Of a stretch of 64,000 nt of DNA, positions 13,673 through 29,607 are shown piece after piece. The notes beneath the pieces are model-generated. The model was not told the DNA's origin and did not search any database. It saw only the letters and a list, made by a program, of their open reading frames with translations. The first letter of the stretch is position 1. Every line of letters begins with the position of its first letter. This DNA comes from Gammaproteobacteria bacterium (GTDB taxonomy: Bacteria; Pseudomonadota; Gammaproteobacteria; Eutrophobiales; Eutrophobiaceae), in contig JBCKWI010000001.1 of the NCBI GenBank assembly GCA_038922795.1, positions 24,033-88,032 of the forward strand, in the 5' to 3' direction. The position numbers and the translations under genes were made by a program.

Positions 13673-14880
13673 TATGCTTCCTTCTTTACATCAAACGCCG
13701 GAGTTTCTTCACGAAACATTGAACGGATCCCACGAACCGCTTGCCGGGTACGATGTTCATTTTCAATGAGTGCAAAACGCACATGCTTGTCGCCATATTC
13801 ACCAAAACCGATCCCCGGTGATACGGCCACCTTGGCTTCACTTAATACCTTCTTGGAAAACTCGATCGAACCCATGGCCTGGAATTGTTCGGGGATGGGG
13901 GCCCAGACAAACATTGTGCCCTTGGGTTTTTCCACAACCCAACCGGCGGAGTTCAGTCCTTCACATAACACATCACGGCGGCGCCGGTACATATCACGGA
14001 TATCCGCCACACATTGTTGATCACCTTCCAGTGCGGTAATCGCCGCTACCTGCACCGGGGTAAACAACCCGTAATCCAGATAGGATTTTAATCGGGTCAG
14101 TGCTTTGACCAGTGTCTGGTTGCCAACCATGAAGCCCACACGCCAGCCGGGCATGTTGTAACTCTTGGACAGGGTAAAGAATTCAACCGCAACATCCTTG
14201 GCGCCCGGTACCTGCAAAATAGAAGGTGCGGTGTAACCATCAAATACGATATCGGCATAGGCAAGATCCTGAACCACCCAGATGTCATGTTCACGCGCAA
14301 TCTCGATGACCTTTTCGAAAAACGATAATTCAACACATTCCGTAGTCGGATTGCCGGGGAAATTCAACAATAGTAATTTTGGTTTGGGCCACGAATCGCG
14401 TATGGCCTTTTCCAGCTCCGCAAAAAAATCAAAGCCCGGCCCTATCGGTACATGCCGGACATCGGCCCCGGCGATTACAAATCCGAACGGATGAATGGGA
14501 TAGGATGGATTCGGCACCAGTACCGCATCACCACGATCGACTACGGCCATGGCGAGATGCGCCAGACCTTCCTTGGAACCGATAGTGACGATGGCCTCGG
14601 ATTCAGGATCGAGATCCACGTCATAGCGTTTTTTATACCAGTTGCAGATGGCCCGGCGCAGTCTCGGGATACCGCGTGACCAGGAATAACGATGCGTATC
14701 TTCGCGGCTGGCCGCCTCGATCATTTTGTCGACGATATGCTGTGGCGGCGGCTGGTCCGGATTCCCCATGCCGAAGTCGATGATATCCTCGCCACGATGG
14801 CGTGCCTCCATTTTCAGGTCATTGACGATGGCGAACACATACGGCGGCAGCCGGTTAATTCTTGGAAATTCGTTGTTCAA
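13672..14880 (-). CDS. Class I/II PLP-dependent aminotransferase (AlaC-like)
   Basis: Track ORF 13672..15048 is over-extended into element copy 4. A probable TTG start at 14880 gives (M)[15 protein letters not shown], the usual family N-terminus. The PLP-lysine motif [12 protein letters not shown] is present. Confidence 0.85.
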
Positions 14881-18750: not shown

Positions 18751-18929
18751 CCTGTCGATTTCACAATAAAAATAATGAATGCGATGCTTAATAAAACCAT
18801 TAACTCAGACGCAAGAAAGTGCCGCTTCCTTATGCTGGTTATGGTTGGTGTTAGACATCATTAATTAAATATATGGAAAAAGTATCTGCGGATTAAACGT
18901 AGTAGAAACTACAAAAAGGAGAAAGATTA

Positions 18930-24253: not shown

Positions 24254-26884
24254 TTGAAGACCCACGTTAAATCCCTGATTGGTATATTGCTTGTGATTGC
24301 CGCCAACCTGTCAATCTGGGCATGGATCAATCGTCCGCATGAACCCGCCGCCGGATGGAGTGGCAAGATCACCGGATTTTCCTTCAGTCCCATGCGCCGG
24401 GATGACAATCCACTGCATGGTGAATTGCCGTCTCCTGCTGAAATTGAATCTGATCTCAAATTTCTTACCGGCAAGATCACTGCAGTTCGCATCTACGGCA
24501 TGAATGGCGGGCTGGAACTGGTGCCAGGTCTCGCTGCAAAACATGGATTGAATGTAACAGCAGGTGCCTGGATTTCACCTGACCCGGTAAATAACGAACG
24601 TGAACTACGTGCCTTGATAGAGGCCGGTAAAAATTACCGTAATGTCGTGCGTCTCATGGTAGGCAACGAAGTCCTGCTCCGTAATGACATCCCGGCGGAA
24701 CAATTAATCCGTTATATCCGCGAGGTGCAGAAACAGGTTGGTCATCGTGTCAGTACCGCTGAACCGTGGCAGGTCTGGTTGAAAAATCCGGAGCTAGTCG
24801 AAGCAGTAGATTTTATTGCCATTCATGCCCTGCCCTACTGGGAAGGTGTGCATATCGACAAGGCAGTCGATCATGTTTTCAATTCGTATGAACGACTCCG
24901 GGCCGCGTATCCAGACAAAACCATCATCTTTTCTGAAGTCGGCTGGCCAAGTGATGGTCCCACAATTGGTGATGCCATTCCCTCATTGGTCAATCAGGCC
25001 AAATTTCTGCGCACATTCCTCAACGAAGTCATATCACACGACATTGTTTATTACGTGGTCGAGGCTTTTGATCAACCCTGGAAGATCGAGATCGAAGGCC
25101 CGGCCGGTCCTTACTGGGGTGTGTACAATGTAGACCGTATACCAAAGTTCCCCATGACCGGTGCCATGATGGAACTACCAACATGGAAACATTGGGCCGG
25201 TGTCGCAGTGCTACTGGCATTGTTGCCCGCGTTGTATTTCATGATGAGGCGTAGCAATGTCAGCACCCGGGGCAAAGTGTTGTTTGCGATTATCACCAAT
25301 TTTGCTGCATCCGGGATTGCCTGGACTGCCTCCATTGGCGCCAGCCAGTATCAAACGCCACTCTCTGCAACACTATGGATCGTACTCGTCTTGCTCCAGG
25401 CCTTCGCCATGCTGGTGATGATGGTCGAGGCTGTCGAAGTTTCCGAAATACTCTGGCGCCGCAACTCCGCACGTGAGTTCCGGTCATTGCCGTACCGTGA
25501 AGGTTATTTTTATCCCAAAGTCTCGATACACGTGCCTATATATAATGAACCACCGGAAATGGTGCAGGAGACACTCGAGGCACTTGCGCGTCTTGATTAT
25601 GAGAATTACGAAGTGCTGGTCATTGATAACAACACCAAATATCCGGCCATGTGGCAACCGGTTGAAAAAATCTGCCGCGAACTCGGCGCACATTTCCGTT
25701 TCTTCCATCTTGAAAACTGGCCCGGATATAAAGCCGGGGCACTGAACTTCGGTCTCAGTGAGACCAGCGCAAATGCTGATGTTATTGCGGTAATCGATAG
25801 TGACTATGTCGTAACACCGCAATGGTTGAAAAGTCTTACGCCTTATTTCGAGGACCAGCGTGTCGGCTTTGTGCAGGCACCGCAGGATTATCGCGACGGG
25901 AACGAAAATCTCTTCAAGCGCATGTGTTACTGGGAATATACAGGCTTCTTTTACATCGGCATGGTCCAGCGCAACGACTTCAATGCAATTATTCAACACG
26001 GCACGATGACGTTAATCCGCAAATCAGCACTCATCGCTGCTGGACAATGGGCGGAGTGGTGCATCACCGAAGATGCGGAACTGGGACTGCGCTTGCTGCG
26101 TGCAAGGCATGATTCTGTTTATGTGAATGAGAGTTTCGGGCGCGGCCTGATGCCGGATACGTTGTCCGCTTACAAAACCCAACGTTTCCGCTGGGCCTAC
26201 GGTTCAGTGCAGATCATGAAACGCCATCTGCTGGCATTGCTGCCGTTTGTGAGTAAAGGCCTGAATCCTTCGCAGAAATATTATTTTGTTGCGGGCTGGC
26301 TGCCGTGGTTGTCTGATGGACTTGCATTGATCTTTGTCATCGCAAGTCTGGTACTGAGCGCGAGATTGATAACTACATATCCACCCACGGATCTGCCGAT
26401 AGAAGCATTCGTATTACCAACCATCGGTATTTTCTGTTTCAAGGTGATCCGATCGTTGTGGCTTTATTCTGCAAAGGTCAAATGTAACTTCAGGGATTCA
26501 ATTTATGCGCTCATCGCGGGACTTGCCTTGATGCACAGTGTCGGCAAAGCAGTACTTACCGGCATCATCACTTCAGGCCGTCCGTTCGTACGTACACCAA
26601 AACTCGAACGCGGCCGGCCATTGTTATCGGCCATAGCAATGATCTGGGAAGAACTGGTATTGCTCATCATGCTCTGGGGCGCAGCCTGGTGGATATATTC
26701 CATCGAATATTTTTACAACACCCAGGGCCGCTTGTGGATCAGTGTATTGCTCGTGCAATCCACGCCCTACCTTGCCGCTGTGTTGATGGCCGCGATCAAT
26801 GTCGCCTTCAGCATCGAACGCCTACCCGCACCACCACCACGATTACGACCAATGCAGATTGAATCATCCCAACAACTACAGTGA
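24254..26884 (+). CDS. Bifunctional GH17 glucanase/transglycosylase + GT2 glycosyltransferase, NdvB-like beta-1,3-glucan synthase
   Basis: 876 aa with a TTG start. The N-terminal TM is followed by a GH17-like domain (VGNEVLLR, FSEVGWPS). After that come several TM segments and a GT2 domain (VLVIDNN, IDSDY, TEDAELG, QRFRWAYG), then C-terminal TM helices. Confidence 0.75.
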   Translation: MKTHVKSLIGILLVIAANLSIWAWINRPHEPAAGWSGKITGFSFSPMRRDDNPLHGELPSPAEIESDLKFLTGKITAVRIYGMNGGLELVPGLAAKHGLNVTAGAWISPDPVNNERELRALIEAGKNYRNVVRLMVGNEVLLRNDIPAEQLIRYIREVQKQVGHRVSTAEPWQVWLKNPELVEAVDFIAIHALPYWEGVHIDKAVDHVFNSYERLRAAYPDKTIIFSEVGWPSDGPTIGDAIPSLVNQAKFLRTFLNEVISHDIVYYVVEAFDQPWKIEIEGPAGPYWGVYNVDRIPKFPMTGAMMELPTWKHWAGVAVLLALLPALYFMMRRSNVSTRGKVLFAIITNFAASGIAWTASIGASQYQTPLSATLWIVLVLLQAFAMLVMMVEAVEVSEILWRRNSAREFRSLPYREGYFYPKVSIHVPIYNEPPEMVQETLEALARLDYENYEVLVIDNNTKYPAMWQPVEKICRELGAHFRFFHLENWPGYKAGALNFGLSETSANADVIAVIDSDYVVTPQWLKSLTPYFEDQRVGFVQAPQDYRDGNENLFKRMCYWEYTGFFYIGMVQRNDFNAIIQHGTMTLIRKSALIAAGQWAEWCITEDAELGLRLLRARHDSVYVNESFGRGLMPDTLSAYKTQRFRWAYGSVQIMKRHLLALLPFVSKGLNPSQKYYFVAGWLPWLSDGLALIFVIASLVLSARLITTYPPTDLPIEAFVLPTIGIFCFKVIRSLWLYSAKVKCNFRDSIYALIAGLALMHSVGKAVLTGIITSGRPFVRTPKLERGRPLLSAIAMIWEELVLLIMLWGAAWWIYSIEYFYNTQGRLWISVLLVQSTPYLAAVLMAAINVAFSIERLPAPPPRLRPMQIESSQQLQ

Positions 26885-26927
26885 CACCGGCCAGTGGAAC
26901 AAATATAATCTTGAATCACAGTAAACC

Positions 26928-26954
26928 GTCATACTGGTGTATACCAGTATCCAG
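26928..26954. repeat. REP-type hairpin, family GTCATWCYGG...ATCCAG, short copy
   Basis: gtcatactggtgtataccagtatccag. Confidence 0.7.
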
Positions 26955-27263
26955 TCAATATAAAGTCCGCTTTCAGGCGGCACATTTATTTAACTGAATG
27001 ACGAATAAACTCTGAGTTTTTCTGTACTGTACTAAAGGAATAGTGATGAACACAAAGAATTTCACACACCTCGACTATAAGGATGTAGTCGGTACGATTA
27101 CAAGGAAGTAATCGGTAGAGTCGAGTCCGGAACGGAGACCGAGAGCGACGCACGACTCCAGGGATGGAGGAGGTAGAATCGCGTCGGGAACAGCGATCGA
27201 GGATGCCAAAGCCGAGGGTTCATAGAGCTTTTAGGGTGTCTACTTATAGTTAGGTTTCAATTA

Positions 27264-27764
27264 ATGATGATTTATCTTGTAGGAACTAATCATGAACTTC
27301 AGCATACAGCTAAGCCAAAGAGAGCTGAAATTGGAAGAGTAAAAGAAGCAAGAAGTAAATTTAAAGTATATCTCAAAGAACTAGCTCTAAAATTTAAAGC
27401 GACTCTTCTCGCAGAAGAATTTGCTGAAGAAGTTCTTGGGTACCTTGATGCTAGCTCAAATATAAAATCTATTGCTGACGAATTAGGAATAGAACATAGA
27501 TTTTGTGAGCCAGACAGCACAACCAGAACAAAACTTGGTGTTCCTGCTACTGGCACCGGAGATTTACCTGCTCATGAAAGACTTAGGTTGCATGCCATTC
27601 GAGAAAAATATTGGCTAGAAACCATTAAAGATAAGGCAAATGATATTATAATTTTTATTTGCGGTTCTAATCATGTGAAAAGTTTTGAAAGTCTTCTACA
27701 AAAAAATGGATTTAACGTAATCATATTAGAATCATATTGGGGTAATGAAATATATGAAACCTAA
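27264..27764 (+). CDS. Hypothetical cassette protein (weak TraB/GumN-like GTxH / GSNH pattern), low-GC
   Basis: 166 aa. It has YLVGTNHELQ and IFICGSNHV. Its stop TAA lies inside ACCTAAC. Confidence 0.5.
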   Translation: MMIYLVGTNHELQHTAKPKRAEIGRVKEARSKFKVYLKELALKFKATLLAEEFAEEVLGYLDASSNIKSIADELGIEHRFCEPDSTTRTKLGVPATGTGDLPAHERLRLHAIREKYWLETIKDKANDIIIFICGSNHVKSFESLLQKNGFNVIILESYWGNEIYET

Positions 27765-27821
27765 CCAACGGCTCAAGCACGACGCGCAAAAGGCGCGCGC
27801 GTCTTATCCGAGCCGTTATGT
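27759..27821 (+). other. attC-like recombination site 1
   Basis: ACCTAAC-CAACGGCTC...GACGCGC-aaaag-gcGCGCGTC...GAGCCGTTA-TGT. It is an imperfect 60-nt hairpin bounded by AAC and GTT triplets (R-prime GTTATGT). Confidence 0.45.
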
Positions 27822-27979
27822 GTCAAAAAGTCTGAGCCGCTGAAATGATCACCCTCAATGGCGGACGCGGTGAAATAGCGCGCCATTTCCTGTCGGGTGC
27901 GCGGAGTCGGGCCGCTCAAGCTTTTCGTTGGGCGACTTAGAGCTTGCCTTGGTCATACCTTTGGTGATACCTTGGAGCA

Positions 27980-28216
27980 ATGAAAGTCGCAATCTCCCTG
28001 CCCGATCCCGTTTTCAAGGCCGCTGAGGTTCTAGCTCACAAGCTCAAGAAGTCCCGCAGCCAGCTCTATGCGGAGGCCATCGCTGAGTACGTCGGCACGC
28101 GCGGCGCAAAGGCCCTCACGGCGAAGCTGAATTCCGTTTATGCCAATGAGTCCTCGGAAGTTGATCCAGCTTTGAAGTATGCCGAGCTTGAGTCGCTGAG
28201 CCGTGAAGCGTGGTGA
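27980..28216 (+). CDS. Ribbon-helix-helix (CopG/MazE-like) antitoxin
   Basis: 78 aa. MKVAISLPDPVFKAAEVLAHKLKKSRSQLYAEAIAEYV is a typical RHH. It overlaps the toxin gene by 14 nt. Confidence 0.75.
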   Translation: MKVAISLPDPVFKAAEVLAHKLKKSRSQLYAEAIAEYVGTRGAKALTAKLNSVYANESSEVDPALKYAELESLSREAW

Positions 28217-28541
28217 GGTCTGGTGGGCCTCACTTTCCGAGCCGGCCGGTTCGGGGCCTGGGTTCCGGCGCCCTGTCCTGCTGATTCAATCCAACCCGTT
28301 CAATGACAGCAGAATCTCAACCGTAGTCATTGCTGCCATCACGTCAAACTTGGCGCTGGCTGAGGCACCCGGCAATGTTCGCATCGGAAAGGCAGTGTCT
28401 GGCCTAGCGAAACCATCCGTCGTGAATGTGTCTCAGATACTCACTATAGATCGTTCGTATCTTACGCAGCGCGTTCGTGCAGTCCCGGCAGAGACAATGC
28501 GGCGAGTGGACAGCGGACTGCGTTTGGTTCTTGGGCTGTGA
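28203..28541 (+). CDS. PemK/MazF family type II toxin (mRNA interferase)
   Basis: 112 aa with a GTG start. It has KRGEVWWASL....G.....RPVLLIQSN and VVIAAITSN. Confidence 0.8.
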   Translation: MKRGEVWWASLSEPAGSGPGFRRPVLLIQSNPFNDSRISTVVIAAITSNLALAEAPGNVRIGKAVSGLAKPSVVNVSQILTIDRSYLTQRVRAVPAETMRRVDSGLRLVLGL

Positions 28542-28545
28542 AGTC

Positions 28546-28717
28546 GCCCAACAACAGGTTCCAGCCGACGTCCCTGCCTGGAATTAAAGGGCCGGCGTGA
28601 TTTAAAATCAACCGGTCAAAATGAAGTACATGGATGTTCAAATGTCGCGGGCGCAGGAAGCGCATGAGCGGCTAAATCACTCCGGCCCTTTCGTGTTTCT
28701 TGAATGCCCTGTTAATA
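28546..28717 (+). other. Long attC-like imperfect hairpin (GCCCAAC ... GTTAATA) with a 19-bp internal inverted repeat
   Basis: AAAGGGCCGGCGTGATTTA (28586..28604) versus TAAATCACTCCGGCCCTTT (28673..28691) matches 18/19. The outer CAACAGG pairs with CCTGTTA. At 172 nt it is longer than classical attC. Confidence 0.35.
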
Positions 28718-28764
28718 GGTGCTATATATAGGTCTATTAATTGCAGCATATAGAGGCCAATCAC

Positions 28765-29034
28765 ATGCAAACGAAGTTCTCCGAAGATGTAATTCCACTT
28801 TCAGATCTCAAAGTTAATCCTGGAAAAATAGTTAACCGTGCAAAAGATTCCCACCGTCCTATTTTGCTTACTAGCCGAGGTAGGGGCGTCGCTGTCATGC
28901 AGGGATTAGATGAATATGAAAAAAATGAAGAAGAGAGAAAGTTCATAAAGGCAATCGCCCAAGGTCTTATGGAAATTAAAGAAGGGAAAGAAATGGAACT
29001 GAAAGAGGTGAAAAAGAAACTGGGTATCATCTAA
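28765..29034 (+). CDS. Phd/YefM family antitoxin
   Basis: The start is placed at ATG 28765. MQTKFSEDVIPLSDLKVNPGKIVNRAKDSHRPILLTSRGRGVAVMQGLDEYE is a typical Phd/YefM N-domain. Confidence 0.8.
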   Translation: MQTKFSEDVIPLSDLKVNPGKIVNRAKDSHRPILLTSRGRGVAVMQGLDEYEKNEEERKFIKAIAQGLMEIKEGKEMELKEVKKKLGII

Positions 29035-29334
29035 GTGAAAATATCCATTTCCAACTCGGCTCTGAATGATCTTGAGAGTATTCAGGAATATTATAAGGAC
29101 GAGGGCGTCCCCCACGCAGGTAAGCAGTTCTTAGTGTCAATTATTGATCACATTGAGACATTGCGTAATAACCCTGATATCGGAAGAATCGTTCCTGAAT
29201 TTAGTGAGGTCAAAATCCGTGAGCTTATACATTCGCCATTCCGCGTTGTTTACTTGAGGGAACAAAGATCAATTCATGTTGTTAGAGTGTGGCGAAGTGA
29301 AAGGTTACTAGTATTACCTGAGAATGAAACATAA
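29035..29334 (+). CDS. RelE/ParE family toxin
   Basis: 99 aa. The GTG start directly abuts the antitoxin stop. It has IQEYYKDEGVPHAGKQFLVSIIDHIETLRNNPDIGR and FRVVYLREQRSIHVVRVWRSER. Its stop TAA lies inside ACATAAC. Confidence 0.8.
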   Translation: MKISISNSALNDLESIQEYYKDEGVPHAGKQFLVSIIDHIETLRNNPDIGRIVPEFSEVKIRELIHSPFRVVYLREQRSIHVVRVWRSERLLVLPENET

Positions 29335-29403
29335 CAAGGCAAATCAACTCGGACAAATTTTCCGCTGGTGCTCAAAATCCGCCAGTTATTTGCGACGTTA
29401 GGC
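29329..29403 (+). other. attC-like recombination site (ACATAAC ... GTTAGGC), 75 nt
   Basis: ATAAC-aag-GCAAAT-c-AACT ... AGTT-ATTTGC-gac-GTTAG. The arms pair with one unpaired base, and the inner CTGG pairs with CCAG. The canonical GTTAGGC core is at the 3-prime end. Confidence 0.5.
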
Positions 29404-29607
29404 CTAAGCATATAACTGACTCTGCAATTCTCCGAATCGTTTGTACCACGTAAAAATCGGGGTCAGGTCTTGAAATTTGAATATGAGATGCACGAAAAAG
29501 TAACGGTAGAAGAAAATGCATTGACCATGCATATTTAAGATTCAACACTGGCCCTTTACATTCGAAATATCAACATCTGCATTGAAAACAACAGATTCAA
29601 TATATTA

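Follow-up and report, generated by a model that had tools for sequence, protein, structure and literature searches.

The interval between a glucan synthase gene and rluF on contig C1 of a gammaproteobacterial genome (NCBI GenBank assembly GCA_038922795.1) is very probably the remnant of a decapitated chromosomal integron, in which an attI core and a partly decayed cassette array persist with no integrase gene (intI). The element is an ordinary member of a well-known class, the attC-site clusters that have no integron-integrase, or CALINs (Cury et al. 2016, PMC4889954; IntegronFinder 2.0, PMC9024848). We analysed a 64-kb window (C1:24033–88032), to whose numbering all positions refer unless another contig is named. 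The assembly is a metagenome-assembled genome (MAG) of 1.92 Mb in 127 contigs, 72.6% complete; we refer to it as G000 and to the relatives with which it was compared by labels of the style G001–G020. The array is flanked on its upstream side by a GH17+GT2 glucan synthase and on its downstream side by rluF, whose product is an S4 and pseudouridine synthase protein. An initial annotation made from the window sequence had proposed a short CALIN with toxin–antitoxin (TA) cassettes between these two genes. This proposal holds: two attC sites are supported by covariance models and, as a TIGR02249 profile search (E ≤ 0.001) found no integron integrase on the 96.7-kb contig C1, the element fits the CALIN definition.

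Support for the attC sites comes from two covariance models of our own. The first, R1, was trained on 16 attCs drawn from the arrays on contigs C8, C50 and C9 of the same genome, which adjoin an intI gene or an intI fragment, and from the integrase-less array of G016; R-box and L-box pairs were imposed, and all window sequences and all members of the family of the first site (attC1) were left out of the training set. The second model, R2, comprises 42 sites. Earlier scans by pattern and energy, written in Python, had been dropped in favour of covariance models because they missed sites 1 and 3 or required arbitrary thresholds. With R1 run over the full 64-kb window on both strands with filters off, the top two matches were attC1 (27759–27821, + strand; 29.4 bits, E = 1.6e-4) and attC3 (29329–29403, + strand; 22.0 bits, E = 8e-3), followed by a third-ranked match at E = 1.3. 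R2 gave 45.6 bits for attC1 and 23.9 bits for attC3 (E = 4e-3). R1 gives 21.8 bits for the genuine attC that ends the C8 array, so that 22 bits falls inside the range of real sites. Both sites lie on the + strand, 1.5 kb apart, and CALINs are delimited as at least two attCs on the same strand less than 4 kb apart.

For attC1, identity is 86% with the attC that closes the intI-linked C8 array, 95% with an attC inside the G016 array and 93% with one inside the G017 array. In the bottom-strand fold of attC3 the L box measures 6 bp and the 3′ arm carries a bulged G; the R″ of this site (ACATAAC) is one position off RYYYAAC, and the remaining features of attC architecture are present. When the bottom strands were folded as single-stranded DNA (ssDNA) and compared with shuffled sequences, z was −3.3 for sites 1 and 2 and −1.6 for site 3, so that folding energy by itself fails to single out site 3.

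The initial annotation had described three attC hairpins, and the motifs that it listed are all exact: GTTAGGT at 27249, ACCTAAC at 27759, the hairpin sequence GAGCCGTTATGT, which ends attC1 at 27821, GTTGGGC at 27927, GCCCAAC at 28546, ACATAAC at 29329 and GTTAGGC at 29397. The placement of the stop codons is likewise as it described, with the TAA of the open reading frame (ORF) at 27264–27764 within ACCTAAC, the ParE stop within ACATAAC and GCCCAAC 5 nt after the MazF stop. Sites 1 and 3 are the top model matches at the coordinates and on the strand predicted; site 2 is incomplete, its R′ gone, so that two of the three sites pass the covariance models. All three fold as hairpins on the bottom strand, site 3 with the bulged G, although the fold of site 3 is no better than that of shuffled sequence. 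A weak attC-like match was also seen elsewhere in the window, at 18786–18856 (+ strand; R2 19.9 bits, E = 0.03).

These results bear on the simplest alternative, that there is no integron here and that a chance group of TA modules with terminator-like hairpins carries accidental 7-mer matches. TA loci frequently cluster in variable regions, and both the poor fold of site 3 (z −1.6) and the failure of site 2 in the models would fit such a group. Chance would nevertheless have to account for model matches at the exact predicted coordinates and strand, for homologues of attC1 inside arrays, for an attI core, and for 24 nt that match the end of a C8 attC exactly; we regard it as highly improbable.

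Directly 5′ of the first cassette lies the attI core, which had gone unnoticed in the initial annotation. On C8, C9 and C50, the stretch between intI and the first cassette contains the same core, TTTTAGGGTGTCTACTTnTAG. Its 15-mer TTAGGGTGTCTACTT (27231–27245) has exactly four copies in the 1.92-Mb assembly, three of them next to intI (C8, C9 and C50) and the fourth here. On those three contigs the core is preceded by a shared stretch that contains TTATACACC and then by intI; this stretch is missing at the window locus. Of the marks of a complete integron, the attI core at the head of the array is present, and no intI adjoins it. The C8 attI itself (G000:C8:25400–25425) meets its first unit at TAG/ATGG and not TAG/TT, a non-canonical G/AT junction, and its integrase is intact.

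The core also allows a second alternative to be weighed, in which the cassettes were inserted sequentially at a secondary site of the attG type by a resident integrase acting in trans, and intI was never present. Integron integrases insert at GWT sites genome-wide, and small CALINs and single attC sites lacking integron-integrase (SALINs) may arise in this way (bioRxiv 10.1101/2022.09.11.507474); moreover, two intact IntI are encoded in this genome, the array is short and no intI pseudogene remains. Yet the 29 nt before the first cassette are the core that heads three intI-linked arrays, and its 15-mer is otherwise absent from the assembly, whereas attG sites differ in sequence from attI (bioRxiv 10.1101/2022.09.11.507474). 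The attG route is a weaker rival, and an improbable one, because what heads the array is an attI core instead of a generic GWT site.

In the place expected for intI and the outer attI, the window has a block of repeats resembling repetitive extragenic palindromic (REP) elements. A blastn search of the genome found dozens of copies of this block at 84–100% identity on many contigs. The repeat family is modular, with copies also in relatives G001, G014, G015 and G017. A tblastn search of 26600–27400 for an intI remnant, at E ≤ 50, gave nothing meaningful. REP elements stand at both places where att homology breaks, the second being the attC of the MazEF cassette described below.

Integrons do occur elsewhere in this genome and its lineage: a genome-wide search for intI and arrays found two intact integrases, decayed copies and other arrays. 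The two integrases, on C50 (480 bits) and C8 (395 bits), score above the TIGR02249 curated cut-off and are 59% identical to each other; of the decayed copies, the one on C9 is a fragment of intI and the one on C29 is frameshifted. Read directly, the C8, C50 and C9 arrays contain canonical attCs, and six of the eight checkable cassettes of the C8 array start with a TTRRRY exactly complementary to their own R″. A search of 21 genomes, G000 included, found an integrase above the cut-off in 9 of them. Neither of the two outcomes that the initial annotation had named as contrary to its reading was observed, namely failure of all three sites in an attC model, or a conserved interval in a lineage free of integrons. 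Genome-wide, R1 gave 27 matches at E ≤ 0.01, including further sites and small clusters away from any intI (C10:7209–10956, C21:14273–14860, C1:9493–9549, and on C24, C48 and C70); this small genome thus holds several integrase-less cassette clusters.

Relatives provide further examples. The arrays of G016 and G017 (G016:C3:405000–415000, minus strand, and G017:C36:82000–92000) comprise at least nine and at least seven attCs, respectively, yet both genomes, each about 100% complete, have no integron integrase; integrase-less arrays are therefore recurrent in this family. The G016 array is headed by an attI-like motif, GTGTCTA...ATAG/TTATGC. The initial annotation had raised cassette turnover in the glucan synthase–rluF interval of related strains, and in the only relative that has both flanks the interval holds other genes. 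In that relative, G002, of the same genus and 99% complete, the glucan synthase gene is separated from rluF by 1.7 kb that contain genes for GFA, a lipoprotein and MPG, and in which no attC was found; the three genes are unrelated to the array and were not found in the present assembly, which is 73% complete. A second relative has altogether different neighbours.

These comparisons bear on a third alternative, an assembly artefact, in which the genome has a complete integron at this place, or has the array in another location, and the assembler jumped the multi-copy REP block at 27072–27218. The assembly is a 127-contig MAG, 72.6% complete, with dozens of near-identical REP copies, and the repeat block ends 3 nt short of the point at which attI homology breaks. 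However, the flanking genes are also neighbours in G002, and because the array is bracketed by syntenic genes a simple mis-join would require two chimeric junctions; integrase-less arrays are, moreover, real in the family (G016 and G017). We consider such an artefact quite improbable.

Table 1. Features of the cassette array and its surroundings, in window positions
Feature	Position	Strand	Description
REP-like repeat block	27072..27218		where intI and the outer attI would be; ends 3 nt before attI homology
attI core	27221..27249	+	CATAGAGCTTTTAGGGTGTCTACTTATAG; crossover after G27249, then TTAGGT
Cassette 1	27250..27815	+	starts TTAGGT; ORF 27264–27764, 166 aa, GC 0.36
attC1, complete	27759..27821	+	R″ ACCTAAC to R′ GTTATGT, 63 nt; matched by R1 and R2
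112-bp remnant	27816..27927	+	starts TTATGT; L″-like arm and L′–R′ attC end (R′ GTTGGGC 27927–27933), no R″
MazEF cassette	27928..28590	+	starts TTGGGC; antitoxin 27980–28216, MazF 28203–28541
attC2, 5′ part only	28546..28590	+	R″ GCCCAAC, L″ GTTCCAG, L′ CTGGAAT, spacer, crossover G; R′ missing
REP hairpin	28586..28709		19-bp stem; loop and right arm are of a second REP family
Phd/ParE unit	28711..29397	+	Phd 28741/28765–29034; ParE 29035–29334; 5′ boundary uncertain
attC3, complete, final site of array	29329..29403	+	R″ ACATAAC to R′ GTTAGGC, 75 nt; matched by R1 and R2

The units of the array (Table 1) differ abruptly in base composition, as had been remarked: measured GC is 0.36 in cassette 1, 0.57 in the MazEF cassette and 0.40 in the Phd/ParE unit, and the genes on either side have 0.50. 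The start of cassette 1, TTAGGT, is the exact complement of its own R″ (ACCTAA), and that of the MazEF cassette, TTGGGC, is the exact complement of GCCCAA in its own R″. The Phd/ParE unit departs from this cassette-start rule. Its candidate start at 28712, within GTTAATA at 28711, mismatches the complement of the R″ of the unit, and GTTAATA is more likely to be part of a putative palindromic Phd operator.

The 166-aa protein of cassette 1 belongs to a small family known from metagenomes only, with 13 metagenomic homologues at 45–52% identity and the invariant residues GTxHExQH ... EE ... R ... CGxxH. Searches of Pfam and NCBIfam found no family for it. Its AlphaFold model is confident (pLDDT 94), and the best match in the PDB is a weak one, to the effector HopBA1 (probability 0.87, E = 0.035, TM 0.43), which we take to be a member of the EreA/ChaN-like fold group; this likeness between a predicted structure and HopBA1 is a lead only. 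Model R2 found no attC at five metagenomic loci with homologues of the protein. In one MAG (L095) the homologue lies directly 3′ of an HTH_3 gene, beside a ParDE pair.

Both TA pairs had been named in the initial annotation, and their ORFs are as it described them. MazF matches PF02452 (PemK_toxin; E = 6e-27) over its full length, and its gene overlaps that of the antitoxin by 14 nt. The assignment of the 78-aa partner as a ribbon-helix-helix (RHH) protein is weak (Pfam RHH_1, E = 0.076; MazE6 in the PDB, E = 0.005). In the Phd/ParE pair, both members are as named: Phd matches PF02604 (E = 3e-16) and ParE matches PF05016 (E = 4e-16), and the pair also gave a match to TIGR01552 (E = 2e-12). No attC was found with R2 at the locus of a MazEF homologue in G004 or at that of a Phd/ParE homologue in G020.

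The attC of the MazEF cassette survives in part. The sequence at 28546–28590 reads GCCCAAC-AACAG-GTTCCAG-loop-CTGGAAT-TAAAG-G, and scores only 8.7 bits when forced as a 3′-truncated match. Circularised on paper, the cassette yields a canonical 51-nt attC ending in GTTGGGC; in the chromosome, G28590 is followed by GCCGGC and not by TT. What follows is a repeat, as 28604–28709, the loop and right arm of the hairpin, is 91–96% identical to C21:13463–13569 and C3:7301–7380. The C21 copy lies directly 3′ of a gene for a 232-aa Y1_Tnp protein of the type of REP-associated tyrosine transposases (RAYTs), which identifies the repeat as a REP element. That Y1_Tnp gene appears to be inserted into a HigA-like gene, beside an integrase-less attC pair (C21:14273–14335 and 14801–14860). 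Since only a 5′ half of site 2 is left, with its end at the crossover G and the REP hairpin after it, the two TA pairs are now probably one fused unit. We also tried site 2 as a 172-nt attC (GCCCAAC...GTTAATA) and rejected it: there is no full-length model match, its interior is a REP copy, and GTTAATA is likelier to be the Phd operator palindrome.

Between attC1 and the MazEF cassette lies a 112-bp segment of which the initial annotation had thought that it (as 27822–27926) might be an ORF-less cassette or part of a composite site. Neither suggestion stands, as the segment holds only the L′–R′ end of an attC. The 24 nt at 27911–27934 are identical to the 3′ L′–R′ end of the attC at C8:27604–27684, and TTATGT at 27816 complements the R″ of site 3 (ACATAAC) and nothing nearer. 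Circularised on paper as an ORF-less cassette, the segment has no R″. A single 175-nt composite attC running from site 1 to the attC end of the segment (site 1b) was likewise rejected, as the 63-nt site is already full-length in the model and its G016 copy directly precedes the next cassette. On this sequence pattern, we read 27816–27927 as the putative stump of a lost cassette.

Several observations weigh against an integron remnant. R1 and R2 are lineage-tuned models of our own and not the attc_4 model of IntegronFinder, and their E-values are rough. The significance of attC3 is window-scale only (E = 0.004–0.008), and the site is absent from the genome-wide R1 matches at E ≤ 0.01. In attC1 an uncommon bulge of 4 nt separates R″ from L″, and R′ (GTTATGT) is one position off GTTRRRY. 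In neither R1 nor R2 is there a full-length match for site 2 starting at 28546, or any match ending at the 27816–27927 segment. The assembly is a MAG 73% complete in which a multi-copy repeat abuts attI, and there is a small chance that a skip across repeats dropped intI; the flanking synteny is shared by just one close relative, G002.

We hypothesize that the locus derives from a complete integron or from part of one. Its intI would have been lost in a rearrangement associated with REPs, and the REP hairpin would have knocked out the middle attC, that of the MazEF cassette, locking the two TA pairs together. The resident integrases of C50 and C8 could still recombine the attI core, attC1 and attC3 in trans; such recombination might excise cassette 1 (attI × attC1) or the 1.58-kb block at 27816–29397 (attC1 × attC3). 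Both TA pairs, which have their own operator-like upstream repeats, are probably addiction modules that oppose loss of the array, to judge from sequence.

A bolder view, which we hold to be doubtful, is that the two divergent integrases resident in the genome (59% identical, with the same attI core) still work in trans on the two intact attCs and the orphan attI core, which together would make up a satellite platform. A further possibility within this view is that REPs mobilised by RAYTs target ssDNA att hairpins, decapitating integrons and freezing cassettes. If the satellite platform were real, one small genome would run several cassette docks with few integrase genes.

The borders of the array have features of their own. 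A strong σ70-like match (GTGACA-17-TATAAT, 11 of 12 positions) at 26881–26909 overlaps and just passes the glucan synthase stop and is aimed at the array; a terminator-like hairpin follows it at 26967–26980. A palindrome-containing motif, CCGTCATACTGGTGTATACCAGTATCCAGTC, at 26923–26960 has copies on at least eight contigs (C2, C8, C26, C29, C34, C41, C122 and others) and could be a putative binding site for a regulator or another small repeat. On the other side, within the 210-bp tail between attC3 and rluF, the motif GGGGTCAGGTCTTG stands at 29457–29470; it has six copies in the genome, one of them just 5′ of the attC that closes the C50 array and another heading the C21 cluster.

Current understanding of integrons is unchanged by this locus, which is of use as a worked example of how a CALIN can originate. 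The origin of CALINs is debated, the candidates being loss of the integrase, rearrangement of an array and insertion at secondary sites (PMC4889954; 10.1101/2022.09.11.507474). Near 95% of CALINs there is no recognisable intI pseudogene, which leaves their origin open, and about half of the genomes that bear them encode IntI elsewhere (PMC4889954). IntegronFinder annotates attI solely by exact match to class 1–3 sites (PMC4889954). The present element resembles other CALINs in having at least two same-strand attCs within 4 kb, no intI nearby, a small array, cassettes of unknown function and TA cassettes, and IntI elsewhere in the genome. It differs in that an attI core is still recognisable, which points to a former integron head and makes the array traceable to one rather than to random insertion. 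Lineage-specific attI cores beside CALINs would thus be a cheap classification aid for annotation.

Sedentary chromosomal integrons such as the Vibrio superintegron hold tens to hundreds of cassettes, and their TA cassettes are thought to stabilise the arrays. The array described here shares with them type II pairs (of the ParE/Phd and MazF/PemK types) that occur as cassettes with their own promoter–operator regions, but it has three units, and the attC of one TA cassette is disabled. Xanthomonas, for example, has chromosomal integrons that have decayed and whose intI is inactivated. As in those, the platform decays in place while cassettes persist, and intermediates are found in this genome (the fragment on C9 and the frameshift on C29); in contrast to them, intI at this locus is wholly removed and not a pseudogene, with REP elements in its place. 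The same genome shows a decay series: two integrons that are intact, one intI reduced to a fragment, one intI with a frameshift, and this fully decapitated copy. Last, the locus resembles the attG insertions and SALINs of Loot et al. (bioRxiv 10.1101/2022.09.11.507474) in lacking an adjacent integrase and in the right junction of the MazEF cassette, a non-canonical G/GCC as opposed to G/TT, whereas the head of its array is an attI core and not a generic GWT site.

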